Assembly (NCBI GenBank): GCA_018401695.1
Contig: JAGYKD010000001.1
Coordinates: 1,116,016-1,180,015 of the forward strand
Length of the DNA stretch: 64,000 nt
Direction: 5' to 3'
From: Flavobacteriales bacterium
GTDB taxonomy: Bacteria; Bacteroidota; Bacteroidia; CAIKAF01
Made by a program: the position numbers and the translations under genes. The first letter of the stretch is position 1; each line of letters begins with the position of its first letter. Positions 17,732 to 55,618 of this stretch are shown piece by piece. The notes beneath the pieces are model-generated. The model saw only the letters and a list, made by a program, of their open reading frames with translations, ran no database searches and was not told the origin of the DNA.

Positions 17732-17741
17732 TACAAACATT

Positions 17742-18530
17742 ATGTCCCAGAATACCATGAATCTTAAGCTTAAAATTTGGCGCCAAAAGAGAGCCTCTAC
17801 TCCCGGAAAGATGGTAGATTATACCCTAAACGGGGTGAATCCGGAGATGTCTTTTCTGGAAATGATGGATGTGTTGAATCAGCAACTCATTGAGGGCGGC
17901 GAAGAACCTGTGGCTTTTGACCACGATTGCCGGGAAGGTATTTGCGGCATGTGTTCTATGTTTATTAATGGAAGAGCCCATGGGCCTATGACAGGAACTA
18001 CCACCTGTCAACTGCACATGCGTCACTTTAATGATGGAGATACCATAACCATTGAGCCCTGGCGCTCTGCGGCTTTTCCGGTCATTAAAGACCTTTCTGT
18101 AGACAGGTCTTCGTTTGACCGAATAATACAAGCTGGCGGCTATGTTTCTGTAAATACAGGAGCTGCTCCCGATGCCAATGCCCTTCCCATTCCCAAAGAA
18201 AATGCCGACGCGGCCTTTGATGCAGCTACTTGTATTGGATGTGGGGCATGCGTAGCTACCTGCAAAAACGCTTCTGCCATGTTGTTTGTGAGTGCCAAAG
18301 TAAGTCAATTGGCTTTGCTTCCTCAAGGAGCACCCGAGCGGCAAGAACGAGCTTTGCGCATGGTTGAACAAATGGACAAAGAAGGCTTTGGAAATTGCAC
18401 CAATACGGGAGCTTGTGAGGTCGAATGTCCAAAGGGGATTTCTATTGAAAACATTGCCCGCATGAATCGTGAATTCCTAAAAGCCTCCTTGGTAAAAAAG
18501 AAAAAGAAAGCCGGAATGGCAGCCAGTTAA
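17742..18530 (+). CDS. sdhB: succinate dehydrogenase/fumarate reductase iron-sulfur subunit
   Basis: [10 protein letters not shown] 2Fe-2S motif and CIGCGAC…CP ferredoxin cysteine motifs. Confidence 0.95.
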
Positions 18531-18540
18531 TCGTCTTCTA

Positions 18541-19317
18541 TTATTCTTTGGTTAGTTGAATGCCCAACAGCTGAATGGCCTTTTTAGAAGCCACTTGTTG
18601 GGCTTTCTTTTTACTGCTGCCTTCGCCCTCGGCAATGGACGCATCATCTACCTTAAGGTCCACAATATACTTCCGAATCTCCCCTCGGTTTTCCTCGTAT
18701 ATTAAATCAAAACGGAGCTGTTTTTTTTCTTTTTGTGCCCACATAAACAACTCGCTTTTGAAGTCATAGACATGGCTGCCTGGCCGGCTTCCAAATAGCT
18801 GTTTGTCGAGGATTTGACGGCGAATAAAGCGGTCCGCTACCGCTAAGCCTCTGTCCAAATAAATTGCCCCAACCAGAGCTTCTAAGGCATTTCCCTTTAC
18901 GTCCTCTGGAGTAATGTCTTTGTTGAACTTGCCAATAATAAGGTCTGAAATCCCCAATTCGTCGGCAACTCTATTTAGGCTCACGCGGTTTACAAGTGCT
19001 GAGCGCATACGGGTGAGTCCACCTTCGTTTTTGTCGGGGTACCTTTGGTACAGATAATCGGCAATAACCAAATCCAAGACCGAGTCGCCAAGGTACTCTA
19101 AACGTTCGTTATGGTCTTTAAAGTTTAGGGACTTCGAATGGACAGCAGAACTGTGTACTAGGGCAATTTCGTAGAGTGCGTATCTTTTGGGACGAAATCC
19201 AAGGACATTCCGGATGTTTTTACGCAAAGCTTTTTCGGTGCTTGAGGAAAGCCATTTTTCTCTAAGCGATTCCAGAAGGCTTTTTTCGCGAAGTTGATGC
19301 TGCTTTTTAGATGCCAT
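18541..19317 (-). CDS. rnc: ribonuclease III
   Basis: ERLEYLGDSVLDLVIADYLY signature plus a dsRBD C-terminus. Start re-set to ATG 19317 (MASKKQHQ…); the track begins at a TTG at 19338. Confidence 0.9.
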   Translation of the reverse strand: MASKKQHQLREKSLLESLREKWLSSSTEKALRKNIRNVLGFRPKRYALYEIALVHSSAVHSKSLNFKDHNERLEYLGDSVLDLVIADYLYQRYPDKNEGGLTRMRSALVNRVSLNRVADELGISDLIIGKFNKDITPEDVKGNALEALVGAIYLDRGLAVADRFIRRQILDKQLFGSRPGSHVYDFKSELFMWAQKEKKQLRFDLIYEENRGEIRKYIVDLKVDDASIAEGEGSSKKKAQQVASKKAIQLLGIQLTKE

Positions 19318-19341
19318 TGCTACTCCTTGCCAACCCAAGCA

Positions 19342-20598
19342 TTATGGGTTGTACTTCTTCACAATAACCGACGCGTTGTGTCCACCAAAGCCAAATGTGT
19401 TGCAGAGTGCCGCATGGACTGGTCGTTCTACTGCTTTTCCAAAGCTTAAATTTAAATGTTGATCGATTTCAGGATCGTCGGTAAAGTGGTTTATGGTAGG
19501 AGGGATGATATCTTGCGAAACCGCAAGAAGGCAGGCTATGGTTTCTATGGCACCGGCAGCGCCCAAAAGATGGCCGGTCATAGATTTGGTTGAACTAATA
19601 CTTAGCTTGTATGCGTGTTGGCCAAAGACCTCTTTAATGGCAAGGGTTTCTGCAATATCTCCGAGAGGAGTAGAAGTCCCATGTACGTTGATGTAATCAA
19701 TCTCTTCGGCTTGCATTTGGGCATCGGCCAATGCATTACGCATCACATTACTGGCTCCAAGCCCATCGGGATGAGGCGCTGTTATGTGGTGTGCATCGGC
19801 AGTGAAGCCTCCCCCGCAAATTTCGCCAAAAATAGAAGCGCCACGAGCTTTGGCGTGCTCTAGCTCTTCCAAAACCAGCGCTCCGGCACCTTCGCCCAAA
19901 ACAAATCCGTCTCGGTCTTTGTCAAAGGGGCGTGAAGCGGTCTCTGGGCTATCGTTTCGGGTAGAGAGAGCATGCATGGCATTAAAACCTCCAATTCCCG
20001 CCACATTTACTGCGGCTTCCGACCCGCCGGTTACAATAACATCCGCTTTTCCGTTGCGTATGTAATTGAAGGCGTCAATCATGGAATGCGTGCTGGAAGC
20101 ACAAGCCGAAACGGTGGCAAAATTAGGACCTCTAAAACCAAATTTAATGGAAATATGGCCTGCGGCAATATCCACAATAACCTTTGGAATAAAGAATGGG
20201 TTGAAACGCGGTGTTCCATCCCCCTTGGCAAAGGCCGAAATTTCGGAAATAAGGGTATCTAGCCCTCCAATACCAGAGGCCCAAATAACGCCGGCTCGAT
20301 CAGGATTTACCGCACCGATTTGGTGCAAACCGGCATGTTCTACCGCTTCGGTGGCAGAGACCAAAGCATATTGAATAAAAGGATCCAATTTGCGGGCCTC
20401 CTTTCGATCAAAATAATCAAGCGGGTCAAACCCTTTGAGCTCGCAAGCAAAACGGGTTTTAAATAAAGAAGCGTCGAAACGAGTAATGGGTCCAGCTCCA
20501 CTTTGGCCACTAACTAAGCCATCCCAGTACTGTTTAAAAGTATTGCCTATGGGCGTAAGCGCACCAAGACCTGTAACCACAACTCGCCTCAACGCCAT
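19342..20598 (-). CDS. fabF: beta-ketoacyl-ACP synthase II
   Basis: 418 aa with a Cys-His-His triad context (…SACASS…, HGTSTPLGD, GHLLGAAG). Confidence 0.95.
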   Translation of the reverse strand: MALRRVVVTGLGALTPIGNTFKQYWDGLVSGQSGAGPITRFDASLFKTRFACELKGFDPLDYFDRKEARKLDPFIQYALVSATEAVEHAGLHQIGAVNPDRAGVIWASGIGGLDTLISEISAFAKGDGTPRFNPFFIPKVIVDIAAGHISIKFGFRGPNFATVSACASSTHSMIDAFNYIRNGKADVIVTGGSEAAVNVAGIGGFNAMHALSTRNDSPETASRPFDKDRDGFVLGEGAGALVLEELEHAKARGASIFGEICGGGFTADAHHITAPHPDGLGASNVMRNALADAQMQAEEIDYINVHGTSTPLGDIAETLAIKEVFGQHAYKLSISSTKSMTGHLLGAAGAIETIACLLAVSQDIIPPTINHFTDDPEIDQHLNLSFGKAVERPVHAALCNTFGFGGHNASVIVKKYNP

Positions 20599-20610
20599 AC
20601 ACTTGGTGTA

Positions 20611-20847
20611 TTACTTGGAATTTTCTTCGATGTAAGCAATAGCTTCACCAACGGTGCTGATTTTTTCGGCTTGATCGTCAGGAATGGCGATATTGAATTC
20701 TTTTTCGAATTCCATAATCAGTTCCACCGTATCAAGGCTGTCGGCTCCAAGGTCGTTAGTAAAGCTGGCTTGAGCATTTACTTCAGCCTCGTCCACTCCC
20801 AGTTTGTCAACGATGATAGCTTTCACCCGGGACGCAATGTCGGACAT
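20611..20847 (-). CDS. acpP: acyl carrier protein
   Basis: 78 aa, [16 protein letters not shown] (phosphopantetheine Ser motif). Confidence 0.95.
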
Positions 20848-20981
20848 ATGTTTTCGTATTAAAGTTAATCGGCTGCAAAGTAAATAAAATTAGCCTAATA
20901 TCCTCCCAACTTTTTTTGTGCAAAGCCGCAATATTAGTTACCATGACTAAAGAAAGGGAGGGTTGGACCTACTCTTGCCGC

Positions 20982-21650
20982 CTAAATGGCTTTGGCTTCA
21001 GGACCGGATATGGGAATAATTTTTGTGTCTGTTAATACCAAAACAATGTCCGTTTTGCTTGGTTGGCAGGCCGCTAAACCGGTAAGGTTGCCAAAGGCCG
21101 GCAGTATGATTTGCCCGGGTTTTATCCACCACATCGGTAGCCTTAAGCGCTGTTTGCCACTTCCTTTTAAGCGAATACCCGGATGGATATGTCCTGCCAG
21201 GTGCGGCCCACTAGGGTGTGCAGGATCATGGCCTAATATAAGGTCATGGAAAGTGTAGCCTTCCTCCTGAACTTCTAAACCCAAACCTTGGTATTGCGCC
21301 TTCGATAAAATATCGTGATTTCCTTTAATGAGCGTGTACCGGTGCTGTGTGCATTCAGACAACAAATGTTTAAAGCATGCTAGGGCTTCGTTGGCTTCGG
21401 AATGAAACAAATCGCCCAAAAAGAAAAAAGTGGTGGGGGCGACCACCGAAAACAGCACCCTAAGCGCGGCAAGGTCTTTTTCTCCCGCATAAGCAGGCAT
21501 TCCAATGCCGGACTTGCGAAAGTGTTCTGTTTTTCCTAAATGTATATCAGCTACAAAACAGGCCGAGGCCTCAGGAAGAAATAGAGCTCCCGGGGATGCG
21601 GCAATCCACTCCTTTTTATTCCAATTAAAGCAAAAAGGAGTGGGAGACAT
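20982..21650 (-). CDS. pdeM: ligase-associated DNA damage response endonuclease PdeM-like metallophosphoesterase
   Basis: VADIHLGK…FLGDLFH…GNHD calcineurin-like motifs and the PdeM-type N-terminus, at a length of about 220 aa. Confidence 0.65.
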   Translation of the reverse strand: MSPTPFCFNWNKKEWIAASPGALFLPEASACFVADIHLGKTEHFRKSGIGMPAYAGEKDLAALRVLFSVVAPTTFFFLGDLFHSEANEALACFKHLLSECTQHRYTLIKGNHDILSKAQYQGLGLEVQEEGYTFHDLILGHDPAHPSGPHLAGHIHPGIRLKGSGKQRLRLPMWWIKPGQIILPAFGNLTGLAACQPSKTDIVLVLTDTKIIPISGPEAKAI

Positions 21651-21822
21651 AAAGAGTGGAATTGTAGATGCTCATCGGTCTTTTAACGCAAACGCATGGC
21701 GGATGTTCATTATATTCCCAAAGAATAAAAACTCATCCAAACATGTCGGGCAAAACACTTGGCTTAGCCGCTAAGCTTTTCTATTTTTGAATACTCATCG
21801 AACTACCCTCAATACCCAAAAC

Positions 21823-23166
21823 ATGCAAAAGCTTTTCTACACGGCATTCATTTTATTCAGCTTGCTTAAGCCCGTAAGCGCCCAGGGAGTTACCATTGGT
21901 GCAAATACCCCTCCCGATGCCTCTGCCGTGCTCGACCTTCAGGATACCACGCGCGGCTTTTTGCTGCCCAGGCTCAACACTGCCCAAAGAAACGCCATAG
22001 CCCAACCGGCAGACGGCCTACAGATTTACAATACCACCGACCATTGCGTGCAGATTCACCTTCCTCAGTCGGGTTGGCGCGATTTGTTGTGCGATTGCAA
22101 CAGTTTTCCCAACGCGCAGTTCAGCTACCCCTCCACCTTGCTGAGTGGAAGCCCCATAACCTTTACTCCGGCGAGCTCCGGCTTGTTTTACAGCTGGAGT
22201 TTTCAGGGAGGAACACCGGCCAGCAGCACCGCAGAGCAACCTTCGGTAACTTTTGCCCAAGGCGGCTCTTTTACCGTTAACTTAACCGTGACCGATCAGC
22301 TTGGCTGTTCGGCCTCTTTTGCAGATACCGTCCAAGTAATCAATTGCGTTACTGGAGGCTCGGTCACCCTCAATACTTGCGGAAATACGGGTAGAACCGG
22401 GCCCAGTCAAAGCCAATGCAATGCTCAATATGGTACCGGTGTGGTATCGGTAAATAATGGGTACCAAACTTGGACCGTTCCCAATGGCGTGTGCTCCTTA
22501 ACGGTTGAAGCCTGGGGCGCTCAAGGAGGAACCAGCAGCACAAACAATGTAGCCGGTGGGCTTGGCGGTTATGTCAAGGGGGATTTTGCCGTGCAGGGCG
22601 GCAATCAACTAGTCATATTGGTTGGTCAACGCGGAGAGTCCGGTAATGGAGGCGGCAACTGGTGGGCCGCCGGAGGTGGCGGAGCCACGGTAGTTGCCTT
22701 CGGAACCAATCCTGCCAGTGCTACGCCTTGGATGGTTGCCGGCGGCGGTGGCGGTGCCGGTAGAAACAGCGGAGAAGTGGGCGGCGCCGGTGGTGCAACC
22801 CTGAGCTTGGGAGGAAATGGAAATGCGGGCACCGGTTCTGGAAACGGTGGAAGCGCCGGCTCAGGATACCACAGCAGTGCAGGAAACGGTTCGGAATCTT
22901 TCGTCAACGGAGGTGCCGGTGCCAACAACAACAGCTATTGCAGTACCTGTGGCATTGGTGGTTTTGGCGGCGGCGGTGCCGGCGGAGGAAATCCCGGCGG
23001 CGGCGGTGGCGGTTATGTAGGCGGCAATTACGGCGCCAACTCCAGCCAGCCAGGAAGCTCTTATAATCGTGGTGGCATGGGCGGAACAAGCTACAATACC
23101 GGCAGCAACCCAAGCAACCAAGCCGGACAACGCATAGGAACCGGTCAAGTAGTGATAACATGGTAA
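21823..23166 (+). CDS. secreted multidomain protein: conserved N-terminal domain + PKD-like domain + long glycine-rich (ALK/Gly_rich-like) C-terminal region ending in GQVVITW
   Basis: Start re-set to ATG 21823 (MQKLFYTAFILFSLLKPVSAQ signal). The PKD-like repeat follows (…SWSFQGGTPASS…FTVNLTVTDQLGC). Then comes …QTWTVPNGVCSLTVEAWGAQGG… and about 250 aa of G/N/S-rich sequence. This protein is paralogous to 59416-61002. Confidence 0.7.
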   Translation: MQKLFYTAFILFSLLKPVSAQGVTIGANTPPDASAVLDLQDTTRGFLLPRLNTAQRNAIAQPADGLQIYNTTDHCVQIHLPQSGWRDLLCDCNSFPNAQFSYPSTLLSGSPITFTPASSGLFYSWSFQGGTPASSTAEQPSVTFAQGGSFTVNLTVTDQLGCSASFADTVQVINCVTGGSVTLNTCGNTGRTGPSQSQCNAQYGTGVVSVNNGYQTWTVPNGVCSLTVEAWGAQGGTSSTNNVAGGLGGYVKGDFAVQGGNQLVILVGQRGESGNGGGNWWAAGGGGATVVAFGTNPASATPWMVAGGGGGAGRNSGEVGGAGGATLSLGGNGNAGTGSGNGGSAGSGYHSSAGNGSESFVNGGAGANNNSYCSTCGIGGFGGGGAGGGNPGGGGGGYVGGNYGANSSQPGSSYNRGGMGGTSYNTGSNPSNQAGQRIGTGQVVITW

Positions 23167-23188
23167 CCAAACTCAAATTTTAAAGCAT

Positions 23189-23809
23189 ATGAAACCTAGT
23201 AAAATTTGGATTCCAATAGCCATAGCAGGCCTCTTTTCGCTTGCCTCCTGCGGCGGTGGCGCTAAAAACGAAACACCAACAGAGGGCGATACCAGTGCTG
23301 TGCTTACCGACACCAGTGCCGAGGCCAGCTTTTTCCCTTCACGAACCGAAATTAAAGAAGACGGAGTTTCCCCAAAAAAGCTCACTACCGGAATGGTGGG
23401 AGAGGTTAAAGTGAGTGTCCAATACGGCTCTCCATCGGTCAAAGGCCGCGAAGTTTGGGGCGCTTTGGTGCCTTATGGCGAGGTTTGGCGAAGCGGAGCC
23501 AACGATGCATCCTGGGTAGAGTTTAGCCAAGACGTAATGATCAACAACCAACCTCTAGCCGCCGGAAAATATGGGTTTTTTACCATCCCCGCCGAAGGAG
23601 AATGGACCGTTATTCTAAATGAAGTGTGGGACATTTGGGGCGCTTACGATTACGATGAGTCACGGGATGTGCTTCGCTTCAATGTGGAACCCCAAAGGGT
23701 GGACGATAACCAAGAAAGCCTGGAGTTTGAAATTACCAACGGAAACCTGGTTTTGAAATGGGAATATTTACGGCTACCCATTCCCGTGGAACCAGCCGTC
23801 CCCTCCTGA
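23189..23809 (+). CDS. DUF2911-family lipoprotein
   Basis: Lipobox LASCGG, and a family-typical core GREVWGALVPYGEVWRSGANDAS…AGKYGFFTIP…WTVILN. Confidence 0.65.
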   Translation: MKPSKIWIPIAIAGLFSLASCGGGAKNETPTEGDTSAVLTDTSAEASFFPSRTEIKEDGVSPKKLTTGMVGEVKVSVQYGSPSVKGREVWGALVPYGEVWRSGANDASWVEFSQDVMINNQPLAAGKYGFFTIPAEGEWTVILNEVWDIWGAYDYDESRDVLRFNVEPQRVDDNQESLEFEITNGNLVLKWEYLRLPIPVEPAVPS

Positions 23810-23990
23810 AATTCTAAGCAAAATCCAACCCATGTTTCGCCTTCGGTTGAGGCAGACCCTTGACGTTTCGGTCAGGGCAGGCAAGTGACGCTCCGGTAAA
23901 GGCGGGCATCCGAAGTTTCCTTGTTAACTGAGGTTTACTCAAAGTAAATTCGTGAGTTTTAATGGTTTGTTTTTGTGCGCCTTATTCGTC

Positions 23991-24356
23991 TTTGGTTATT
24001 TATTGGTCATTGGCTGTTGGCCGTTAGCTATTGGCCGTTAGCTATTGGCCGTTAGCTATTGGCAGTTAGCTATTAGCCGTTAGCTATTGGCAGTTAGCTA
24101 TTAGCAGTTAGCTATTGGCAGTTAGCAGTTAGCTATTGGCAGTTAGCAGTTAGCTATTAGCTATTAGCAGTTAGCAGTTAGCCAACACCCAATACCCAAA
24201 AGCCAATACCCAAAAGCCAAAAGCCAATACCCAAAAGCCAAAAGCCAAAAGCCAAAAGCCAAAAGCCAACACCCAATACCCAAAAGCCAAAAGCCAAAAG
24301 CCAAAAGCCAAAAGCCAAAAGCCAAAACCCAAAACCCAAAAGCCAAAACCCAAAAA
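23991..24356. repeat. heptanucleotide-based microsatellite arrays, blocks A and B
   Basis: Block A (about 23991-24182) consists of TATTGGC/CGTTAGC/AGTTAGC heptamers as 14-mers GTTAGCTATTGGCC. Block B (24181-24356) consists of CCAAAAG/CCAATAC/CCAAAAC heptamers. A and B are partly inverse-complementary (TATTGGC vs GCCAATA). Block B ends 1 bp before the ATG of the four-helix-bundle gene. Confidence 0.9.
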
Positions 24357-24357
24357 C

Positions 24358-24735
24358 ATGCGAAACTTCAGAGAACTGGATATATGGATCAAGGGGATTT
24401 TAGTAGTAAAAGAGACGTATTTATTAACGAAAGCCCTGCCAGACATAGAAAAATTCGGCTTAATAAGCCAAATGCAAAGATGTGCTGTTTCTATTCCTTC
24501 CAATATTGCTGAAGGGTGTAGCAGAAATAGTCAAATAGAATTTAAACGTTTTTTAGAGATTGCCTTAGGATCTGCATTTGAACTTGAAACTCAACTTATA
24601 CTTTGTTCCGAAATAGGTTATCTCAGTAGTGAAACATTGCAGAGGTCGCTATCTGAATTGCATCTTCTTCAAAAGCAAATGAACGCACTAATTACCAAAA
24701 TTGCTAAAAGCCAACCCCCCAAAACCAAGAGCTAA
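24358..24735 (+). CDS. four-helix-bundle protein (23S rRNA intervening-sequence protein / DGR Avd-like family, PF05635-type)
   Basis: 125 aa with MRNFRELDIW…ETYLLTKALPDIEKFGLISQMQRCAVSIPSNIAEGCSRNSQIEFKRFLEIALGSAFELETQL…, a textbook match to this family's signature. Confidence 0.85.
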   Translation: MRNFRELDIWIKGILVVKETYLLTKALPDIEKFGLISQMQRCAVSIPSNIAEGCSRNSQIEFKRFLEIALGSAFELETQLILCSEIGYLSSETLQRSLSELHLLQKQMNALITKIAKSQPPKTKS

Positions 24736-24852
24736 AACCCAAAACCCAAAAGCCAAAACCCAAAAGCCAAAACCCAAAACCCAAAACCCAAAAGCCAAAA
24801 CCCAATACCCAAAACCCAATACCCAAAACCCAATACCCAAAACCCAACCCCC
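24707..24852. repeat. heptanucleotide microsatellite array, block C (CCCAAAA/GCCAAAA/CCAATAC units)
   Basis: Begins inside the last about 9 codons of the four-helix-bundle gene and runs about 115 bp past its stop codon. Confidence 0.9.
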
Positions 24853-25160
24853 ATCGCGTTTCCGCAAGTGCCCTTGCCTCCGCCGATTAACCGTATCAGC
24901 TATTTTACTATAAATCAACCCAATATGATAACCCTCCTACACAAATGAAAAGCTTTGGTGCAAACAAAAGTGGTGCTTCTACATTATTAAATGCAGGTAA
25001 AAACCACCAATTTTGTTTACGAAATCGAGAAGAGTATTTTAAAAGATGACCAAATTCAAGAAATCAATGAAGTTGCTTCAAGATGTAAAATAAAGGACAG
25101 GATAATAATGGAACATTAAGTCTTAGAAAAATAGAAAGCACAATTTTCGCAAAAAAACAC

Positions 25161-25565
25161 TTGCCTTTATGGATAGTTCATTTCCTAAAAATTCTTGCCG
25201 AAATAGTTTGTCTGTTTTTTACATCTGTACATTCCAAAACGCTGGATTTGGTTAATGAAATTTCGAGATTAACCCCGCTCGATTTCAACCTTGAAAAGAA
25301 TTATTCGTTTTGTTCCTACGAAATCAAGCGATTCCTGAAAGACAGTGCATTGGGAATGATGCCTTCAAAAGTTTGGACTGGAGAGCCGGATTTAACAGGC
25401 GTTTATTTGCTTGTCAAAGAAGAAGGGGAGGTTCTTTGTTGTTTTATTTCCAATAGAAATGAATGTGAGGACTATTTACTAAACAACACTAAACTTGAAT
25501 CAGCTAGTAGTACAAGACACAATTTTGGTACAGTTTTCCGTAAAGATTCAAAGCAATTTTTTTAA
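25161..25565 (+). CDS. hypothetical small protein in an AT-rich islet
   Basis: The track ORF starts on TTG. The first ATG is at about 25356, which would give a 69-aa product (MMPSKVWTGEPDL…). No recognisable family; coding status uncertain. Confidence 0.3.
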   Translation: MPLWIVHFLKILAEIVCLFFTSVHSKTLDLVNEISRLTPLDFNLEKNYSFCSYEIKRFLKDSALGMMPSKVWTGEPDLTGVYLLVKEEGEVLCCFISNRNECEDYLLNNTKLESASSTRHNFGTVFRKDSKQFF

Positions 25566-25862
25566 CTGAATTTGCAAATTGGATTTTTAAAATAATGCCA
25601 ACGCTTCTTAGCCACACCTTTAGGCCGTCGTTAAAGCCAGACATACAAGCCAATGCTTGTCAAACAGTATGTCTGTGCTAAGACACAGGTGAAAAGAATG
25701 TAGGTTTGCACCACATGGTATAAGAGCCATAGCAAGCAAAGTCCTAAATTCAAGGTCTGTACATTTAATTATCTTTAGTGGTGGCGGACAGGTAATCGCC
25801 TTGAAATCCGCTGCTGCTGGTAAAACTGACCGTTAGGCAAAATGTATTAAACCAAATCGAAC

Positions 25863-26747
25863 ATGAATCTGCTAAATAGGCTTTACCAAATATTTCTATC
25901 GGAGTACGCTAAAAGGAAGATTGAAAAAGCAATTTTATATATTGCATTAGTTGGCTTTTTCATCCACTTGATTTTAATTTACTTATCGAATTTCGGCATA
26001 GTAAACTTGTTTTTAGAATCGGAATTATTTAAAAATCCGATATCGGCAATTTACACCCCATTCTCATTTATTCTTGTTTATGAGGTTTACCTGCTGATCT
26101 ATTACTTGCCCAAGTCGTTTACTACTTACATAACCAAGCAATATGAAATTATAACCCTTATAATTATTCGAAAATTATTCAAAGATTTATCCGCTATTGA
26201 ACTATCGGCAGATTGGTTTCAAATAAAAGGGGATATACAATTCACCTATGATATCTTGGCATCGGTAGTTCTTTTTTACTTGATTTTTCAGTTTCAAAAA
26301 CTAGGAAAGCAAGCATCGGCTGCACAAATGGACAACAGTATGATCATTGAAAGATTTATACGTAGAAAGAAAATAATTGCCCTCACCCTGGTCCCGATAT
26401 TCTTTGTTATGGCTATAGTTACACTTGTGAACTGGATTTCTGATGTTTCTCTGGCCTCGAATGACCTGCCGAGTTTTGAAACCATTAATAATTTATTCTT
26501 TGATGAATTTTTTACCGTACTAATCTTAGTGGATGTCGTACTTCTGTTAATTTCCTTCTTTTATACCGACAAGTTTCATAAAATAATTAGAAATTCCGGA
26601 TTTGTAGTTTCCACGATTTTAATTCGGATGTCATTCGGAGTAAGTGGATTAATTAGTACAATTTTAATTGTAGTAGCTGTCTTGTTCGGGTTAGCAATAA
26701 TTGTAATCCATAATAAATTTGAAAAAAATGCTTTACCCAAGAACTAA
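25863..26747 (+). CDS. polytopic membrane protein (6-7 TM segments), unknown family, in an AT-rich islet
   Basis: 294 aa, very hydrophobic and I/L/F-rich, in a region of markedly lower GC than its flanks. Confidence 0.5.
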   Translation: MNLLNRLYQIFLSEYAKRKIEKAILYIALVGFFIHLILIYLSNFGIVNLFLESELFKNPISAIYTPFSFILVYEVYLLIYYLPKSFTTYITKQYEIITLIIIRKLFKDLSAIELSADWFQIKGDIQFTYDILASVVLFYLIFQFQKLGKQASAAQMDNSMIIERFIRRKKIIALTLVPIFFVMAIVTLVNWISDVSLASNDLPSFETINNLFFDEFFTVLILVDVVLLLISFFYTDKFHKIIRNSGFVVSTILIRMSFGVSGLISTILIVVAVLFGLAIIVIHNKFEKNALPKN

Positions 26748-27009
26748 GCTTTCCCTGGCCCTCTAATGCCCGTAAGCAAACCGCAGTGCACCCGCCGCCT
26801 GCGCACGGGGCAGTTGCCATCGTTGGGCTTGTCATTTAATTTGAGGTTTGGGTAAAGCGGCTTTTCAAGGGCTCCGGAACGGCAGAAAGAAAGGAGAGAG
26901 CAAGGCGGATGGTTCGATACTCCGGCGCGTAATGACCCCTTCCAACACACATTTCCCTACCCAAAAAGCACAGCCGGCTTCCTCCCAGACAAAATGCACT
27001 ACCTAAAAC

Positions 27010-27185
27010 AATGCATTAAAATCATTTTTTTGCCGGTGCGTTGTCCGGAAAGATGCTCGATATTCACTTTTTTGGCAGTGAATTGTCTGGGAAGCCCCTT
27101 GATATCTACTTTTTGGGTAATGCATTGTCCAAAAAGCCCCTCGATCTACCAACTTTTGGCAGTGAATTGGCACGCACCCACCCAA
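27010..27185. repeat. imperfect tandem repeat (about 42-bp period, 3-4 units) upstream of rpoN
   Basis: Recurring TTGGCAGTGAATTG…, AATGCATTGTCC…, GCCCCT(C/T)GAT(A)TCTAC segments in AT-rich intergenic DNA. Confidence 0.5.
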
Positions 27186-27344
27186 ACTTCATGGTTTTGG
27201 ATAGCTCCCATTCGGCGGCCCTGCGCCCCCCCCCTTCCTAACCTTCAGGCGATGAAGAATCCCAATTTGCTGCCGACCAAGTGTTATTTTTTTTGTCCAC
27301 ACCCACCATACCCAACTCGTTTTCCAACTCTCCCTCTGTTATTG

Positions 27345-27492
27345 CCCCCCGGGGCAAAGGGAGGCTCCTGCACAGGGCGGCTGTAGGGACTGTTGGGCGA
27401 GGAAGCGACCGCAGGAAGCTACCGCAGGCCTACAGCCCCTAAGCTGCCCAAAGCAGAGCCGGAACAAGTCCCGGATAGGATACTTGAACTTC
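27345..27492 (+). repeat. copy of an about 150-bp GC-rich dispersed repeat family (head CCCCCGG.CAAGGGAGG… tail …GCCGGAACAAG.CCGGATAGGATAC)
   Basis: Shares both termini with the copies at 42036-42190 (reverse), 42961-43100 and 55801-55935. Confidence 0.6.
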
Positions 27493-27602
27493 ATTGGAAG
27501 GAGGGCCCAAATCCCTCTTATTCTCGCTTAAAATGCATATGCACCGCTTGAATTTTGGCTATCTTTGTAGGAAGGTTCGTTGGAATCGTTTACAGGTGTG
27601 TG

Positions 27603-29045
27603 ATGCTTAAACAGAGTCTGCAACAGAAATTACAACAGAAGCTGAGTCCTCAACAGATTCAGCTAATGAAGCTTTTGCAGGTGCCCGTGGCGGCATTGGA
27701 GCAGCGGATAAAGGAAGAATTGGAGGCCAACCCGGCTTTGGAAGAGGGGCAAGAAGAGCTTGCCGATGCCGATGACTATGCACAGGAAACAGAAGATACT
27801 GCCGCCCAGGACGATTTGGATTTAAGCGATTACTTGGACGACGACGATTTTCCTTACTACAAAACTCAGATATCCAATCAAGGGGTGGACGAGGAACAGC
27901 GTTCTATGCCGCTGTCGGCGGGAACCAGTTTTCATGAGAGCTTGCTCGCGCAGATTGGTCTAGGCAGCTTTACTGAGGAGCAGGCCGGCTTAGCTCGGCA
28001 CTTGATAGGGAATTTGGATGAGGACGGCTATTTGATGCGTGATTTGGCTTCGGTGGTAGACGATTTGGCCTTTTCGCAAGGCATTGAAACCACCGAAGAA
28101 GCCTTGGAGGAGGTGTTGTCTTTGGTTCAGCGTTTTGATCCGGCCGGAGTGGGCGCCCGCGATTTGCGCGAATGCTTGCTCATTCAGCTTTGGCGGAGGT
28201 CCAAAAGCCCGGAAGTGCTGGCGGCCATAGAATTGTTGGAAAAGTATTTCGAAGAGTTTACGCGCAAGCACTACGACAAGATTCAGCGGCGCATGGGCCT
28301 GGACGATGAGATGCTAAGGAAGGTGGTTCAGGAGATTTTGCATTTGAACCCCAGGCCGGGCGGAAGTATGAGTCATACCGACCGATCTGCGCAGACCATT
28401 ATCCCGGACTTTTTACTTTTGGTGGAAGAGGGGAAGCTCGAGTTGAGTTTAAATAGCAAGAATGCCCCTGAATTAAGGGTTTCCAAAACCTATGCCGATA
28501 TGTTGGAAGGTTTTGCCCACAACAAAGAGCAGGCCGATAAGAGTCAAAAAGAGGCCGTATTGTTTGTAAAACAAAAGTTAGACGCGGCCCGTTGGTTTAT
28601 TGATGCCATACGTCAACGGCAAGAAACTCTAATGGCGGTAATGGGAACCATACTTGAATTGCAAAGGGCCTATTTTTTGAGCGGGGATGAGCGGGACTTA
28701 AGGCCCATGATATTGAAAGATGTAGCCGACATTGTGGGTTTAGATATTTCTACCGTAAGCAGGGTGGCCAACTCTAAATATATAGAAACTCCCTACGGTA
28801 CATTTTTGCTCAAGAGTTTTTTCTCGGAGTCTTTGTCCACCGAAAGTGGAGAAGAAGTAAGCACTAGGGAGGTGAAAAAGATTCTGTTGGATTGCATCAG
28901 TGGCGAGAACAAGAAGAAGCCATTGACCGATGAAAAATTGGCCGAAATATTAAAGGGGCATGGCTACAATATAGCGCGCCGTACCGTGGCCAAGTACCGA
29001 GAACAACTGGGCATAGCCGTAGCCCGTTTGCGTAAGTCCTTATGA
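27603..29045 (+). CDS. rpoN: RNA polymerase sigma-54 factor
   Basis: Start re-set to MLKQSLQQKLQQKLSPQQIQLMKLLQ… The C-terminal RpoN box/HTH (…ARRTVAKYREQLGI…) is present. Confidence 0.9.
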   Translation: MLKQSLQQKLQQKLSPQQIQLMKLLQVPVAALEQRIKEELEANPALEEGQEELADADDYAQETEDTAAQDDLDLSDYLDDDDFPYYKTQISNQGVDEEQRSMPLSAGTSFHESLLAQIGLGSFTEEQAGLARHLIGNLDEDGYLMRDLASVVDDLAFSQGIETTEEALEEVLSLVQRFDPAGVGARDLRECLLIQLWRRSKSPEVLAAIELLEKYFEEFTRKHYDKIQRRMGLDDEMLRKVVQEILHLNPRPGGSMSHTDRSAQTIIPDFLLLVEEGKLELSLNSKNAPELRVSKTYADMLEGFAHNKEQADKSQKEAVLFVKQKLDAARWFIDAIRQRQETLMAVMGTILELQRAYFLSGDERDLRPMILKDVADIVGLDISTVSRVANSKYIETPYGTFLLKSFFSESLSTESGEEVSTREVKKILLDCISGENKKKPLTDEKLAEILKGHGYNIARRTVAKYREQLGIAVARLRKSL

Positions 29046-29650
29046 GTTTTTGGAAATTGGTTAGCTACCTGTTGCATCCCCTGTGGGTGCCTAGTTTGGC
29101 TATGGCATTGGTTTTAGCGACCCATCCAAGTTTATCGCTGATTATTCCTGCGGCAGGGCAATGGCGTTTGGTGGCCTTTGTCTTTGTGTTTACTGCGGTG
29201 ATTCCGGGGGTTACCGTGGTGTATATGAAGCGGTTTGGATTGGTTAAATCCTTGGAGTTGCCCCAAAGAAAGCAAAGGCGTTTGCCTTTGTTGGTGGCTT
29301 GTCTGAGTTTTTCGGCTGCCTTTTATATGCTGCGATCGGCCATTCCTTTGCCTTTGATTGAGTTACTTATGTTGTCGGGCATGTTGCTTATGGGCCTGGC
29401 GCTTATGATTACCTTATTCTATAAGATAAGCATGCATACGATGGCCTGGGGAGCCATTACCGGTCAGGTGTTGGCGCTTGGTCCCTGGCAAGTGCAGGGC
29501 TTTTTGTTTTGGTTTTCTTTGGCGATTCTGTGCAGCGGTTTAGCGGCTTCTTCGCGCCTTGCATTAAGGGCGCATGTCGGGCATGAGCTGGTAGCCGGTT
29601 TTGGCCTGGGTTTTGTGGTGACCGGAGGCTTGTTTCAAATGTTGCTGTAA
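29042..29650 (+). CDS. integral membrane protein, unknown function
   Basis: 202 aa, about 6 TM segments, overlaps the rpoN stop. Confidence 0.45.
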   Translation: MSFWKLVSYLLHPLWVPSLAMALVLATHPSLSLIIPAAGQWRLVAFVFVFTAVIPGVTVVYMKRFGLVKSLELPQRKQRRLPLLVACLSFSAAFYMLRSAIPLPLIELLMLSGMLLMGLALMITLFYKISMHTMAWGAITGQVLALGPWQVQGFLFWFSLAILCSGLAASSRLALRAHVGHELVAGFGLGFVVTGGLFQMLL

Positions 29651-29773
29651 GTCAAAATTTTAAGGCTTTCATTCCCCGTAAAGTGGGGGCGAAGAAGTAG
29701 GGGGTATACCTATCCATAGGTATCTAAATTACCCACTCAACGGGATTGTGGAAGCCCGGGGGCGCCTGTACTT

Positions 29774-31054
29774 TTGTCTCAGAAAATGTCAAATGTCATG
29801 AAACAACTTTACTTTGCCGGAGCGCTTATGCTTTGTACCGGTTTAACCGCTCAAAATCCCGTGATTGAAGACTCGGTGATTTTGGGACCCAGCTATGTAA
29901 ACAAAGCCTTCTATAGCCTTGCCAATGGAGAAGAAGGCCAAATGGTCAATACCGATTGGGATTTGCAATTTGCTTCCCATACCTCTATGAGCAGCACCAT
30001 TCGCTTAAATGGCGGATTTAATGTAGCCTTATGGCAGTATACCAACGGCGATACCACCGATTGGGCAACTATCGACACCTCCGGCTTGGCCATGGGAAAT
30101 GGTTGGGATCGTTTGCGCGACGAAACCACGGCCTACGAATCGGGAGCTTTTGAGCAAAATGCGACCGGCTTTCCAAACTACGGCTGGGGAAATTACAACC
30201 AGGTGAGTCACGATGTAATTGGCGACCAACTTTTTGTAATGACCACAACCAATGGAGCCTGGAAAAAAGTGTGGATCAAAGGTTTGTTTGCCACTACCCA
30301 ATCTTATGTGGTGCGTGTAGCTGATTTGGATGGCCAAAACGATACCGAGTTTACGGTAAGCCGTTCCGGTCAAGCTTCTAAAAATTGGTTGTATTACGAT
30401 GTAGATGCGGGCCAGCTCCTCAACAATGAACCCGAAAAAACCGACTACGATTTGGTTTTTGAAAAATATGAGGGTTTGTTGGCTCCCGGTACGTATTATC
30501 CGGTAACCGGCGTGCGCTTAAACCGCAACGTTATGGCGGCTCGCGTAGGCGGATTGCCACCCAATGAAGCGGACTACACCACTGTTACCCTCACCGACGA
30601 TATTTCTACCCTCGGACACGATTGGAAAAGTTTTGCAGGCATGGGCTTTGTACTGGACGATTCCTTGTCTTTCTTTATTGAAGACCAATCCGGCGATATT
30701 TGGCACCTATGGTTTACCGGTTTTGTAGGTTCTTCTGCCGGCAAATTTATCTTTAACAAGCAACAGGTAGGGTCTATGTCGGTAACAAATGAAGTAGCCC
30801 AAAACAACAGCTTGGAGGTATATCCCAACCCGGTTGGCGAAACCCTGCATTTGCGTGTTGGTTCCAACCAAGGAGGAGGAAGCTTGCAAATTGTAAGCCT
30901 CCAGGGCCGGGTGGCGTATGCCCAGCAATGGACAGGAAACCAAAGCATGGAATTAAGCTTAGACATAGCCTCTTTAGGTTTGTCTGCCGGGCTGTATGTG
31001 GTGCAATGGGAGTCCGCTGCCGGTCTGCTTGCTCAAAAGTTCGTAGTACGTTGA
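29774..31054 (+). CDS. HmuY-like protein with a T9SS C-terminal sorting domain
   Basis: Signal peptide, then …FYSLANGEEGQMVNTDWDLQFAS…IRLNGG (HmuY-like motif shared with 33334-34341). The C-terminus is a type-A Por/T9SS CTD (…LEVYPNPVGETLHLRV……LYVVQWESAAGLLAQKFVV). Confidence 0.55.
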   Translation: MSQKMSNVMKQLYFAGALMLCTGLTAQNPVIEDSVILGPSYVNKAFYSLANGEEGQMVNTDWDLQFASHTSMSSTIRLNGGFNVALWQYTNGDTTDWATIDTSGLAMGNGWDRLRDETTAYESGAFEQNATGFPNYGWGNYNQVSHDVIGDQLFVMTTTNGAWKKVWIKGLFATTQSYVVRVADLDGQNDTEFTVSRSGQASKNWLYYDVDAGQLLNNEPEKTDYDLVFEKYEGLLAPGTYYPVTGVRLNRNVMAARVGGLPPNEADYTTVTLTDDISTLGHDWKSFAGMGFVLDDSLSFFIEDQSGDIWHLWFTGFVGSSAGKFIFNKQQVGSMSVTNEVAQNNSLEVYPNPVGETLHLRVGSNQGGGSLQIVSLQGRVAYAQQWTGNQSMELSLDIASLGLSAGLYVVQWESAAGLLAQKFVVR

Positions 31055-31069
31055 TTTTATAAACAAACT

Positions 31070-33337
31070 GTGGCCAACGCGCACAAACAAGTGTTCTTTC
31101 GATTCCATTTAGCGTTACTCATCGGTTGGGTCTGGGCAAGCGTAAGCTTCGCTCAGGCTCCGCTGGTGAACATATTGGACTCCGACGGATTGCCGCTTTA
31201 TGGAGCGCATTTGAGTTTTAGCAAGGACAGTTTGGAGGCTCCGGTGTATAGGGTAACCAATGCCAAGGGCGAAACCGAAATCCCCCTGGCTTTGCCGTGC
31301 AGCGTGGAAGTGCGCTATTTGGGCATGCAGCCACAACGTTTAGTGCTGCAAGGAGCCGGCCCATTCCGAATTCAGTTGCAAGCCGATGCCGTTTTTGCTC
31401 CGGAATATGTGGTTACTGCCCATAGTACGCCTACTCGAATGGAAGAAACGGTGTATCAAGCGCGGGTTATTGACCGGAAACGCATCGATGCACAAGGCGC
31501 TCAAAACCTGCGCGATTTATTAAGCAACGATTTGAATTTCAGACTTTCGCAAGATGCCGTGCTTGGTTCCTCTGTGCAAATGATGGGTGTTGGCGGAGAG
31601 AACATTAAATTGATGATTGACGGCGTGCCGGTTATTGGACGCCTGGACGGCAATATTGACTTGTCCCAAATCAATCTGCAAAATATTGAACGGGTCGAAA
31701 TCATTGAAGGCCCGATGTCTGTCCTCTATGGCTCCAACGCCTTGGGAGGAGTAATCAACCTAATTACCAAAAAGAATCAAGCCCATCAATGGGAAGGCCA
31801 TACCACCTTATTTTACGAAACGGTAGGCAATTACAATGCCGATGCGCGCGTAGCCTGGCAAAAAGGACGGCACCAAGCCTCACTGAGCGGAGGACGTTAC
31901 TTCTTTGATGGGTTCCGCAGCAACGACAGCCTGCGCAGAGTTCAAACCTGGAAACCCAAGGAGCAGTATTTTGCCGATGCGGCTTATGGACTTTCCATTA
32001 AAAAAATGAATTTAAGGTATCAAGGGCAATACTACCGAGAAACCATGCAGTTTAAAGGAAGTCCCGAAATGCCCTTTGGAATTGCCGCTACCGACAAATA
32101 TTTCTATACCGATCGAATAGGCAACAGTCTTTTTTTGAATGGTTTTCTTAAGGATCGTCATCACTTGGATGTAACTGCGGCCTACAACTACTTTTTCAGG
32201 GAGCGGGAAGTATTGCGCAAAGATTTGGTAAGCCTGGACGAAACCCCGGTGGAGACCAGCACCGACCGTTTTGATTTATGGATGAGCCGCGGTATTTATA
32301 CCTGGCAAATAGACACCGCCAAGTTGAGCTTGCAAGCCGGTTATGAAGTGAATTATGAAACCGGACAAGGGCCCCGTATTTTGAATCAGGAACAAGACCA
32401 GTTGGATTTGGCAGGCTTTGCCGCTCTGGAATATAGGCCGCACCGAAAAATTTCCCTTAAACCCGGCATACGTTACGGGTACAACTCCTCTTTTGACGCC
32501 ATTCCTATTCCTTCGTTTCATGCCCGCTTTCAGCCAATAAAATTCCTCACTGCCAGAGCATCTTATGCCCGCGGTTTTAGAGCACCTTCTCTAAAGGAGT
32601 TGTTTTTTGAGTTTGTGGATGTAAATCACAACATTTATGGAAATCCGAACTTGCTTTCGGAGGCCAGCCACAATGCGCAAGTCGGATTAAGTTTTGATAA
32701 ATCATTGAACAAAAACCTCCGATTTAGTGCTGAAGCCAATGGATTTTACAATTATATAGACAATCAAATTCGATTGACCCTGGTCAATGTCACCGACGAT
32801 TCCCTAGTGTATCGGAACGAAAACATCAGTTATTTTCGTTCGTTGGGGACGCGGGTGCAAAGCAGCTTGCAATGGAAGGGACTGCAGCTGCAAGCCGGCT
32901 GGTCCTACACCGGGGTAGAAAATGGCCTTCAAGACATCCCGGAAGACCAAAATCGTCTGGCATTTTTCCACGAAGGGCGTTTGAATTTGGGCTACGATTT
33001 GCGCCGCTACCGCACCTCTTTTCAACTCTTTTTTAAGTATACCGGACGTCAGCCCTTTTTGTACAGTAGTTTTGATGAAAGCTTGCAAACCTCGGTTGTG
33101 CAAGAGGGTTATATCGACGGCTTTGCGAATATGGACGCCTCCCTTACCCAACGGTTCTTAAAAAATAGAGTTACGGTTACCTTTTTGGCCAGGAATTTAA
33201 TGAACATTACCGATGTTCGTCAAACCGCCGGAGCTTCCGGCGGCGCCCACAGTTCGGGAAGCAATGCCTTACCAACCCTTTGGGGGCGTAGTTTTGCGGT
33301 GTCCCTTAGGTATCAATTTTTAGCAGGTAAAAAATGA
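31070..33337 (+). CDS. TonB-dependent outer-membrane receptor (HmuR-like context)
   Basis: 755 aa with a plug domain (…VVTAHSTPTRMEETVYQARVIDRKRID…), a beta-barrel, and a C-terminal aromatic residue (F at -5). Confidence 0.85.
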   Translation: MANAHKQVFFRFHLALLIGWVWASVSFAQAPLVNILDSDGLPLYGAHLSFSKDSLEAPVYRVTNAKGETEIPLALPCSVEVRYLGMQPQRLVLQGAGPFRIQLQADAVFAPEYVVTAHSTPTRMEETVYQARVIDRKRIDAQGAQNLRDLLSNDLNFRLSQDAVLGSSVQMMGVGGENIKLMIDGVPVIGRLDGNIDLSQINLQNIERVEIIEGPMSVLYGSNALGGVINLITKKNQAHQWEGHTTLFYETVGNYNADARVAWQKGRHQASLSGGRYFFDGFRSNDSLRRVQTWKPKEQYFADAAYGLSIKKMNLRYQGQYYRETMQFKGSPEMPFGIAATDKYFYTDRIGNSLFLNGFLKDRHHLDVTAAYNYFFREREVLRKDLVSLDETPVETSTDRFDLWMSRGIYTWQIDTAKLSLQAGYEVNYETGQGPRILNQEQDQLDLAGFAALEYRPHRKISLKPGIRYGYNSSFDAIPIPSFHARFQPIKFLTARASYARGFRAPSLKELFFEFVDVNHNIYGNPNLLSEASHNAQVGLSFDKSLNKNLRFSAEANGFYNYIDNQIRLTLVNVTDDSLVYRNENISYFRSLGTRVQSSLQWKGLQLQAGWSYTGVENGLQDIPEDQNRLAFFHEGRLNLGYDLRRYRTSFQLFFKYTGRQPFLYSSFDESLQTSVVQEGYIDGFANMDASLTQRFLKNRVTVTFLARNLMNITDVRQTAGASGGAHSSGSNALPTLWGRSFAVSLRYQFLAGKK

Positions 33338-55612: not shown

Positions 55613-55618
55613 TTCGAG

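Follow-up and report, generated by a model that had tools for sequence, protein, structure and literature searches.

Complementary heptamer arrays flank a PF05635 four-helix-bundle gene in a Flavobacteriales genome and its relatives in several bacterial phyla

Introduction

The closest described systems to the element reported here are intervening sequences (IVSs) of 23S rRNA that carry an open reading frame (ORF) of the PF05635 four-helix-bundle family. In Coxiella burnetii, terminal inverted repeats pair into a 28-bp stem whose loop contains an S23p ORF. RNase III cuts within this stem, and two or three tandem GACAGAT heptamers, their number variable between strains, stand just upstream of the ATG (PMC4990558). 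Here we analyse a stretch of 64,000 nucleotides from a Flavobacteriales bacterium (assembly GCA_018401695.1, contig JAGYKD010000001.1, positions 1,116,016 to 1,180,015 of the forward strand; hereafter the window, numbered from its first letter) in which a PF05635 gene stands among three arrays of 7-nt units, block A with one type of unit (X) and blocks B and C with units complementary to it (Y). We refer to the gene with its arms as the cassette.

Tandem heptamers are themselves a known feature of bacterial genomes. They are over-represented in bacteria, an excess that has been called unexplained (PMC4692102), and in Xanthomonas they often form convergent inverted pairs (70 cases); one Xanthomonas repeat, #15 (GGGAATCGGGAGTGGAGAATCGGGAATC, GGGAATC-type), overlaps the beginning of XCC0516 (PMC4692102 supplement; Rehm et al. 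2015), the protein of structure 2GSC. The cyanobacterial short tandemly repeated repetitive sequences (STRRs) and the Xanthomonas and Beggiatoaceae repeats vary in length between related species. A general link between heptamer repeats and the PF05635 family is made neither in PMC4990558, PMC4692102 and PMC4679880 (TAACTGA repeats) nor, as far as full-text searches of open literature show, elsewhere, and complementary heptamer arms around PF05635 genes seem not to have been described before.

The window cassette resembles the ORF-bearing IVSs of C. burnetii, Leptospira and an Azospirillum lipoferum plasmid locus described below (L213) in having a PF05635 ORF with complementary arms. In those IVSs, however, the ORF lies in the stem loop, whereas the window locus reads X-Y-ORF-Y and its predicted fold pairs A with B. 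Its arms, of 182, 176 and 130 nt, compare with the 28 bp of the Coxiella stem. IVSs are inserted in helix 25 or 45 of 23S rRNA, whereas the window cassette lies outside rRNA, between a DUF2911 gene and a restriction-enzyme fragment, and where the Coxiella IVS is cut by RNase III, the window genome has an RNase III gene and cleavage of the cassette is predicted. On this comparison the cassette appears to have the design of an ORF-bearing rRNA IVS, yet it is not one, because it is not in rRNA.

Other systems share single features with the locus. STRRs, the Xanthomonas GGGAATC repeats and the Beggiatoaceae TAACTGA repeats also have a 7-nt period, are intergenic and often stand next to start codons, but they have been treated as genome-wide elements and proposed to be G-quadruplexes or regulator sites, whereas the arms described here are tied to one gene family. 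Avd, of diversity-generating retroelements (DGRs), has the same four-helix-bundle fold as the window protein, and both are encoded by small genes beside a structured RNA important to the element; a DGR, however, has a reverse transcriptase and a template repeat/variable repeat (TR/VR) pair, whereas the window neighbourhood has neither, its flanks are short-period arrays and its protein is 10-11% identical to Avd. The contingency loci of Haemophilus and Neisseria likewise carry tandem repeats beside and overlapping a coding region; the repeats here differ in standing on both sides, in being mutually complementary, in having no promoter-spacing or frame logic, and in a pattern that is conserved across phyla rather than strain-variable. 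Finally, repetitive extragenic palindromes (REP), bacterial interspersed mosaic elements (BIME) and MITEs (miniature inverted-repeat transposable elements) are hairpin-forming intergenic repeats, often in operons, but these are dispersed copies of one palindromic unit with no gene, whereas here each arm is a tandem array and the pair encloses an ORF.

Results

Heptamer arrays abut both ends of the four-helix-bundle gene

The cassette comprises the following features, given by position in the window.

24001-24182, plus strand: block A (X arm), about 26 units of the form TTRGC-NN (TATTGGC / AGTTAGC / CGTTAGC / TATTAGC), from Tandem Repeats Finder and a register parse
24180-24355, plus strand: block B (upstream Y arm), 25 units (AGCCAAA, ACCCAAA, ACCCAAT, AGCCAAT, AGCCAAC)
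24358-24735, plus strand: PF05635 / TIGR02436 four-helix-bundle gene (S23p/XCC0516 type), 125 aa, from profile matches
24706-24847, plus strand: block C (downstream Y arm), about 19 units (ACCCAAA, AGCCAAA, ACCCAAT), C-rich
23991-24345, no strand assigned: long imperfect hairpin between the two upstream blocks, A and B, tip close to 24180, from predicted folds

Tandem Repeats Finder reports block A with a period of 14/28 built from 7-nt units TATTGGC / NGTTAGC (score 215), preceded by degenerate first units from about 23991; block B with a period of 7, 25.1 copies and the consensus AGCCAAA (score 247); and block C, at 24718-24847, with a period of 7, 18.7 copies and the consensus CCCAAAA (score 190; GC skew -0.82). 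Parsed in 7-nt register, A, B and C hold about 26, 25 and 19 units, with the core TTRGC in the X arm and GCYAA or CCCAA in the Y arms. Blocks A and B are inverse complements of each other, and block C repeats B in direct orientation, at 85% identity in register across 149 nt. A preliminary description made from the letters of the window had already recognized these three 7-nt arrays and the inverse complementarity of A and B. It had also placed the start of block C correctly inside the last nine codons: the first Y-type unit (AAAAGCC), at 24706, lies 27 nt ahead of the stop codon (24733-24735), the last nine codons of the ORF are composed of Y-type units, and the block extends 112 nt beyond the stop. 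At the other end, block B finishes at 24355 and leaves a gap of 2 nt before the ATG at 24358, instead of the 1 bp first given.

The locus thus has tandem 7-nt units in non-coding DNA, as in STRR-like intergenic repeats. Nine of the ten occurrences of AGTTAGC in the window fall at the cassette, as do all four of TATTAGC and 15 of the 26 of GCCAAAA, and Tandem Repeats Finder locates two such array sites in the window, the cassette included. Against Rfam, the arrays return only sub-threshold microRNA-precursor models, which reflect a generic long hairpin. Integron attC sites came into consideration, the units resembling GTTRRRY / RYYYAAC, and were set aside on their consensus: one position is mismatched, the motif order is reversed and there is no integrase.

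The second site, which the preliminary description had noted as a related array near 55525-55612, lies at 55533-55608 and consists of (GGTTGGCTTTTGGCA)-like units of X type in inverse orientation; it is solitary, with no Y partner. Directly after it come two 97-nt direct repeats (55610-55706 and 56000-56096, 390 nt apart, 78% identical), and between them lies a GC-rich segment in which a 24-nt inverted repeat is found. The site adjoins an ORF6N-domain gene (56185-56712) and lies 1.3 kb from a tRNA gene (57390-57463); it has neither a four-helix-bundle gene nor a gathering-level match to Rfam.

A Logan contig of the same species, SRR14300309 (L124, where 4621-4858 corresponds to window 23809-24046), is identical through the DUF2911 gene and stops 60 nt into block A, and independent read support reaches that far only; contigs carrying the downstream 294-aa gene begin 80 nt upstream of that gene, short of the arrays. 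The same layout recurs in many independent assemblies, closed plasmids included. Since arrays break short-read assemblies, surveys are biased against finding long ones.

Arm polarity is conserved while unit sequences turn over

Among relatives of the window gene, the upstream arm is G-rich and the downstream arm is its reverse complement, C-rich and starting at or just before the stop codon. This arrangement is conserved in at least five phyla while the unit sequences turn over. We examined it in two samples, one of 80 metagenome loci encoding relatives 48-69% identical to the window protein, and one from a tblastn search of complete plasmids, which gave 20 matches at 33-49% identity, 17 of whose loci were retrieved.

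In the Bacteroidota-like subfamily of relatives, the units of the window recur, TTRGCNN ahead of the gene and NNGCYAA after it. Cores of X type were counted 347 times upstream and 101 times downstream, and those of Y type 222 times upstream and 411 times downstream. The layouts in this subfamily are X-ORF-Y, with the ORF in the loop, and XY-ORF-XY, in which a hairpin module stands on each side with the loop sequence in common (L128, L129); the window is X-Y-ORF-Y. Of 69 loci, 55 have a C-rich array as the first one at or beyond the stop codon, and 10 have a G-rich one.

All 17 plasmid loci, from cyanobacteria, Azospirillum and Gemmatirosa, have arrays, and in 16 of them the upstream and downstream arms are complementary, the exception (L212) having an ISL3 element abutting its upstream side. 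By inspection of the listed units, the array at the stop codon is C-rich in 16 of 17. The arms of several of these and of two more distant relatives read as follows.

Nostoc edaphicum (L207): upstream AGTAGGG x7.9, downstream TCCCTAC x4.9
Nostoc punctiforme (L211, L223): upstream TCAGGAG, downstream CTGACTC / CTCCTGA
Nostoc sp. C052 (L215): upstream AGGGAAC, downstream CTGTTCC
Calothrix brevissima (L220): upstream AGGGTGT, downstream CTACACC
Picosynechococcus (L221), octamers: upstream AGGAGATA, downstream ATCTCCTA
Gemmatirosa (L214), octamers: upstream GAGGGCAG, downstream CTCCTGCC
Azospirillum lipoferum (L213): upstream GAGGACG / CAGAGGA, downstream the complement (CGTCCTC)
Pseudanabaena galeata (L208): X, (AAAAGCT)x15.6, ATG, ORF, stop, (AAAAGCC)x14
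Bacteroidetes (L009), more distant relative: CAAGGAG / CTTGCGT
Acidobacteriota (L015), more distant relative: GAGTTAT / ATAACTC

The Pseudanabaena galeata locus has both the layout and the units of the window. The closest relatives of the window protein (L001-L003, 72-74% identical) have short TTGGCTT / AGCCAAA arrays in the same positions. The usual array in relatives has 3-5 imperfect units. Strict reverse complementarity at the level of the unit (at most one mismatch, any rotation) was found at 26 of 79 loci, a count based on Tandem Repeats Finder consensus units, which understate complementarity in imperfect arrays. When upstream arm, linker and downstream arm were folded as mini-cassettes, 30-87 long-range pairs were predicted, often in continuous helices of 30-48 bp, and most relatives gave clear predicted stems with the ORF in the loop.

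Two observations concern arms apart from intact cassettes. In L009, the first ~73 nt of the four-helix-bundle gene, ATG included, are duplicated upstream (100-174 and 270-344), and the upstream array (CAAGGAG / CAAGACA...) starts at the very point at which the duplicate arrives at the CAAGGAG of the gene itself; from its sequence, this arm appears to have been seeded from the gene. X-Y heptamer hairpins with no intact gene between the arms occur in L109 (4135-4577), L092 (2358-2708), L115 (7808-7880) and L121 (7428-7517); the four-helix-bundle profile matches the L109 loop weakly and in part (E 0.016), and L109 could be a decayed cassette.

Arrays are enriched beside the gene family

Arrays of period 7, 14, 21 or 28 were found within 300 bp of the gene at 59 of the 80 metagenome loci, and arrays of period 6 at about ten more. 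Arrays of the period-7 type take up 14% of the 150 nt that precede the gene, 10% of the final 30 nt of the ORF and 16.5% of the 150 nt that follow it, and about 1.3% beyond 300 bp and 0.2% of the gene body. Taking as controls coordinates moved by 1.8 kb within the same loci, 6-8-nt arrays were present on at least one side of 60 of the 66 relatives with full flanks, against 25 of 89 shifted controls. Arrays stood on both sides in 39/66 relatives and 2/89 controls (Fisher p ~1e-16), a large effect whose p-value overstates independence, since the loci share ancestry and some are near-duplicates. An earlier test based on 6-mers that the upstream flank has in common with the reverse-complemented downstream flank (p 5e-9), which is noisy in AT-rich DNA, is superseded by these Tandem Repeats Finder counts with shifted controls. 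An alignment-based scan of viral contigs and a tblastn search of phage genomes returned no relatives.

We also approached the association from the repeat side by scanning for (SCCAAAA)3 in one genome per species. At least 120 loci were listed, from Bacteroidota, Cyanobacteriota, Acidobacteriota, Verrucomicrobiota, Proteobacteria and other phyla. Among the 120 loci listed, a PF05635 gene lay within 8 kb in three, two of these genes being flanked by other complementary heptamers, and an X-type partner arm lay within 500 nt in eight, upstream every time.

The preliminary description had suspected a genome-specific repeat that associates with particular loci. The association stands at the level of the gene family (60/66 and 39/66 against the controls), and the genome-specific part falls, as the architecture is found across phyla.

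The predicted hairpin differs between strands

The hairpin proposed in the preliminary description was reproduced by folding. As plus-strand RNA, the A/B region folds with -106 kcal/mol (z -5.5) and about 5 bp per unit; as minus-strand RNA, with -183 kcal/mol (z -14.9) and 6/7 positions paired, a comparison of minimum free energies that is confounded because G/U-rich strands fold better. The minus strand gains because plus-strand A-C mismatches turn into G-U pairs. As DNA, the same region gives -49.9 kcal/mol (z -3.2) and an unstructured centroid. In the minimum-free-energy fold, block A pairs with the upstream block B and not with block C.

The window protein is a PF05635 four-helix bundle

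The ORF matches PF05635 (E 5e-35; 120.4 bits, cut-off 33.8) and TIGR02436 (E 1.8e-33; 115 bits, cut-off 24) and aligns with the family profile from position 1. An AlphaFold2 model (predicted local distance difference test, pLDDT, 95) has four helices, at residues 8-24, 29-54, 59-85 and 91-117. With Foldseek, the best match of this model is 2GSC (template-modelling score (TM) 0.88/0.94, root-mean-square deviation 1.2, 41% identity), followed by BT_0352 (2RLD, TM 0.76) and, distantly, by the Avd structures 4DWL and 8UB7 (TM ~0.77, identity only 10-11%); 2GSC is the sole match of phmmer against the PDB. The PF05635-type four-helix-bundle fold named in the preliminary description is thus borne out by profiles and structure alike. 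The tail encoded by block C is unconserved among relatives and predicted to be disordered (pLDDT ~60 at residues 121-125). The protein is mildly basic (pI 8.8). The 2GSC entry holds five chains, described as a homopentameric toroid (PMC4990558).

In public annotation, the gene is represented only by an 87-aa product (P0020), 100% identical over 70% of the ORF, which apparently starts at the internal Met39 of the translated sequence; gene callers may avoid a start codon that abuts an array. One homologue (P0041) bears the source annotation 'bAvd family'. The family is large, with at least 7991 matches among the best 8000 candidates scored.

One plasmid cassette is a true rRNA intervening sequence

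The Azospirillum lipoferum plasmid locus L213 has no annotated feature, and its whole 2.7 kb matches large-subunit rRNA (RF02541, 2135 bits) on the same strand as the four-helix-bundle ORF, whose arms are heptamer arrays. L213 is a true 23S rRNA intervening sequence. By its resemblance to the E. coli sequence, the flanking rRNA may be the helix-45 region. In the window, there is no rRNA, a tRNA at 57390 being the only gathering-level match to Rfam.

Cassettes are mostly packed inside operons

Most cassettes are co-directional with their neighbours and tightly packed inside operons, in the following places.

Between cas6 and cas4: L208 1201-1560 (Pseudanabaena) and L219 483-851 (Anabaena sp. 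90)
Between cas10 and cmr3: L221 492-848 (Picosynechococcus)
Between gmd and the next epimerase gene (fcl): L143
Upstream of a gene with a HemE-like N-terminus, read from sequence: the L140 and L150 groups
Upstream of WecB-like and HsdM-like genes, read from sequence: L141, L144 and L127
Between two hsdM genes in type I restriction-modification operons: L001-L003
In conjugation gene clusters: L215

Among flavobacterial groups, synteny around the cassette is kept in genomes that are 82-87% identical, and its four-helix-bundle gene, at 92-98% identity, shows stronger conservation than the sequence on either side. Array lengths differ between related species (L142 vs L140); they are the same in four variants of a related short-armed cassette that are 97-99% identical, which is weak evidence as the arrays are short. 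At the cas6-cas4 junction of the two cyanobacteria, the four-helix-bundle proteins are 44% identical and the adjacent Cas4 proteins 73%, an identity pattern that hints at cassette replacement.

In the heptamer-rich loci L143, L166, L009 and L015, arrays occupy nearly every intergenic space, and among the sugar-nucleotide genes of their polysaccharide operons stand small toxin-antitoxin genes (MazF/PemK, PIN, HEPN with nucleotidyltransferase, AbiEii and ParE), each of them array-flanked.

Neighbourhood of the window cassette

The nearest neighbours of the cassette are the following.

23189-23809, plus strand: DUF2911 gene, upstream neighbour on the same strand as the four-helix-bundle gene
25161-25565, plus strand: HpaII restriction endonuclease fragment (PF09561 positions 224-351 of 359, E 2e-38)

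Only the C-terminal third of the HpaII endonuclease profile is covered, and the fragment, which follows the cassette directly, looks like what is left of a truncated restriction-modification system. Beyond it lie a membrane protein gene and then rpoN (27555-29045). An RNase III gene at 18541-19338 is known from the annotation of an identical Logan contig. No plus-strand sigma-70-like promoter and no Bacteroidetes -7 box (TAnnTTTG) was found in 23701-24900; two minus-strand sigma-70-like matches in that segment lie inside or beyond the four-helix-bundle gene. Because the gene has no promoter motif of its own there, its transcription by read-through from the DUF2911 gene is plausible.

The preliminary description had raised a reverse transcriptase, TR or VR nearby as the sign of a DGR. 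No reverse transcriptase occurs among the 10 ORFs spanning 19342-33337 (Pfam annotation), and 16000-33000 contains no TR/VR-like pair, its direct repeats of at least 40 nt being the arrays, a 42-nt tandem repeat and one chance-level pair.

Some other repeats and genes of the window may be recorded here. The spacer between the DUF2911 gene and block A has 1.9 copies of a 25-nt unit (TGACGCTCCGGTAAAGGCAGGCAAG) at 23861-23908, in a segment bounded by complementary CCTTCGG and CCGAAG. The 42-nt tandem repeat (3.5 copies, 68-73% identical) lies at 27022-27169, upstream of rpoN. A 59-nt tandem repeat at 45742-46110 (5.3 copies, 92% matches, internal periods of 24 and 35 nt) separates a porin-O/P-like gene (44496-45704) from a release-factor gene (46401-47294, PCRF + RF-1 domains) whose PCRF match begins at profile position 38. 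The window proteins include type IX secretion system sorting domains and TonB receptors, which, from the distribution of these families, point to Bacteroidota.

Discussion

The window locus is very probably one copy of a widespread cassette in which a PF05635 gene is provided with complementary heptamer arms. We propose, with confidence evenly poised, that it is an IVS-like cassette whose arms form a long stem that is processed by RNase III. The arms would pair in the transcript into a long stem with the ORF in or beside its loop, this stem would be a substrate of RNase III, and the cassette RNA would be cut out of, or insulated from, the surrounding unit, be it an operon, an rRNA or, here, read-through from the DUF2911 gene. 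The arms would lengthen and shorten by replication slippage, and since two arrays of the same period pair in any register, their complementarity would outlast insertions and deletions; changes in copy number would be a by-product and not a switch. That RNase III processing at the RNA level is the function of the arms, by analogy with the Coxiella IVS, is a tentative suggestion to which we give somewhat less than an even chance. The proposal as a whole draws on the armed layout kept among relatives, the complementary plasmid arms and their predicted stems, the polarity at the stop codon, the true IVS L213, the Coxiella and Xanthomonas heptamers, the packing of cassettes into operons and, in the window, a gene with no promoter motif of its own and a genome that encodes RNase III.

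Several observations weigh against this proposal. The A/B hairpin of the window is poor as sense RNA, with helices of ~5 bp, and far better as antisense. Mismatches between arms do not favour either strand: sense-compatible G-U mismatches number 53 and antisense-compatible ones 49, with 82 transversions (p 0.77), a test at the level of the unit (TTAGC vs GCTAA) gives 29 against 23 loci (p 0.49), and with no wobble bias no strand can be assigned. Three plasmid cassettes, L207 (between nrdB and nrdA), L209 and L210, run in the opposite direction to both neighbours, which means that removal from a host operon cannot be the whole story. As to the association itself, (SCCAAAA)n arrays are mostly solitary, with neither a partner arm nor a four-helix-bundle gene, in many phyla; heptamer-rich genomes have arrays flanking toxin-antitoxin genes too, and the arrays are thus not exclusive to PF05635; and polarity in loci of shared ancestry could be inherited, not selected.

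The main rival to processing of the RNA is a function at the level of DNA, with the arrays as substrates, for recombination or as hairpins, in the movement, capture or deletion of the cassette, or, in a variant, as a quasi-palindrome subject to correction, and we consider it unlikely. Recombination between B and C would excise a circle of the gene and one Y array and leave a solo A/Y hairpin, and Campbell-type integration into a resident Y array would yield X-Y-ORF-Y. B and C are direct repeats at 85% identity in register over 149 nt, solo X-Y hairpins exist (L092, L115, L121), the XY-ORF-XY flanking modules with a common loop (L128, L129) are direct duplicates, cassettes occur at many unrelated sites, rRNA included, the 44% vs 73% identity at the cas6-cas4 junction suggests replacement, and a lack of wobble bias is expected if complementarity is kept in DNA. 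However, no transposase, integrase or target-site duplication accompanies the cassettes, the flavobacterial site is conserved and syntenic between genomes 82-87% identical with the gene more conserved than its flanks, the window hairpin is weak as DNA with an unstructured centroid, and polarity relative to the ORF is left unexplained. It is distinctly unlikely that the arrays serve instead as binding sites, a pentameric ring binding the tandem units that flank its own gene, each subunit taking one unit of RNA or DNA, much in the manner of TRAP, which binds spaced triplets. Such a ring, known from the homologues 2GSC and 4DWL, would exert autoregulation on translation or processing, and arm pairing would compete with binding. 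The five chains and homopentameric toroid of 2GSC fit this idea, as do the fold common to Avd, which is part of the DGR ribonucleoprotein (8UB7, 4DWL), the mildly basic window protein (pI 8.8), a period constant at 6-8 nt while units change, and arrays that abut start and stop codons. Yet it is the complementarity of the arms that is conserved and not the unit sequence, and proteins 43-49% identical to that of the window adjoin quite different units (AGTAGGG in L207, AAAAGCT in L208).

Phase variation, which the preliminary description favoured, now appears very unlikely. Slippage in block B would alter the spacing between promoter and ATG and slippage in block C the C-terminus; long simple-sequence repeats are mutable, the heptamer number upstream of the Coxiella S23p ORF is strain-variable, and array lengths differ between related species (L142 vs L140). 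But no promoter-like element flanks block B, and the array-encoded tail is unconserved and predicted to be disordered, so that gain or loss of units in block C would not turn the protein off. A spacing switch has no need of complementary arms flanking the gene on either side, relatives mostly have just 3-5 imperfect units, and, as weak evidence, the four variants 97-99% identical have identical short arrays. Ordinary STRR-like microsatellites, present genome-wide and adjoining the gene by chance, are a highly improbable source of the arms. (SCCAAAA)3 occurs at the 120 or more loci of many phyla nearly always without a four-helix-bundle gene, some genomes have arrays in most intergenic regions (L015, L143, L166), and the over-representation of heptamers in bacteria is documented (PMC4692102); against this, arrays are enriched more than ten-fold beside the gene relative to the rest of the same loci, both sides carry them in 39/66 relatives vs 2/89 controls, the arms are complementary and placed at start and stop codons, and the window has only two such sites, of which the cassette is one. 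That the gene is the Avd accessory of a DGR, as the fold (TM ~0.77 to 4DWL and 8UB7) and the 'bAvd family' label of homologue P0041 might suggest, has a negligible probability and is refuted for this neighbourhood: the ORFs annotated from 19.3 to 33.3 kb include no reverse transcriptase, no TR/VR-like pair occurs from 16 to 33 kb, identity to Avd is 10-11%, and phmmer of the PDB finds 2GSC alone.

A more far-reaching idea, for which we see only a slender chance, is that PF05635 pentamers are dedicated partners of heptamer repeats that recognise, and perhaps help to create or maintain, their own arms. The co-occurrence in at least five phyla, the constant period of units whose sequence changes, the conserved polarity, the solo hairpins and the solitary arrays are compatible with it. 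Were it true, the modules would insert into transcribed DNA and be removed at the RNA level, giving rise to ORF-bearing rRNA IVSs, and the decay and spread of arms would explain part of the excess of heptamer microsatellites.

Complementary heptamer arms offer a structural handle on PF05635, a very large family whose armed genes are found in restriction-modification, CRISPR-Cas, polysaccharide and haem-synthesis operons and in rRNA. Seen from these loci, the rRNA IVS may be recast as one landing site of a broader cassette, and the arms provide a lead on the over-representation of heptamer repeats in bacteria.

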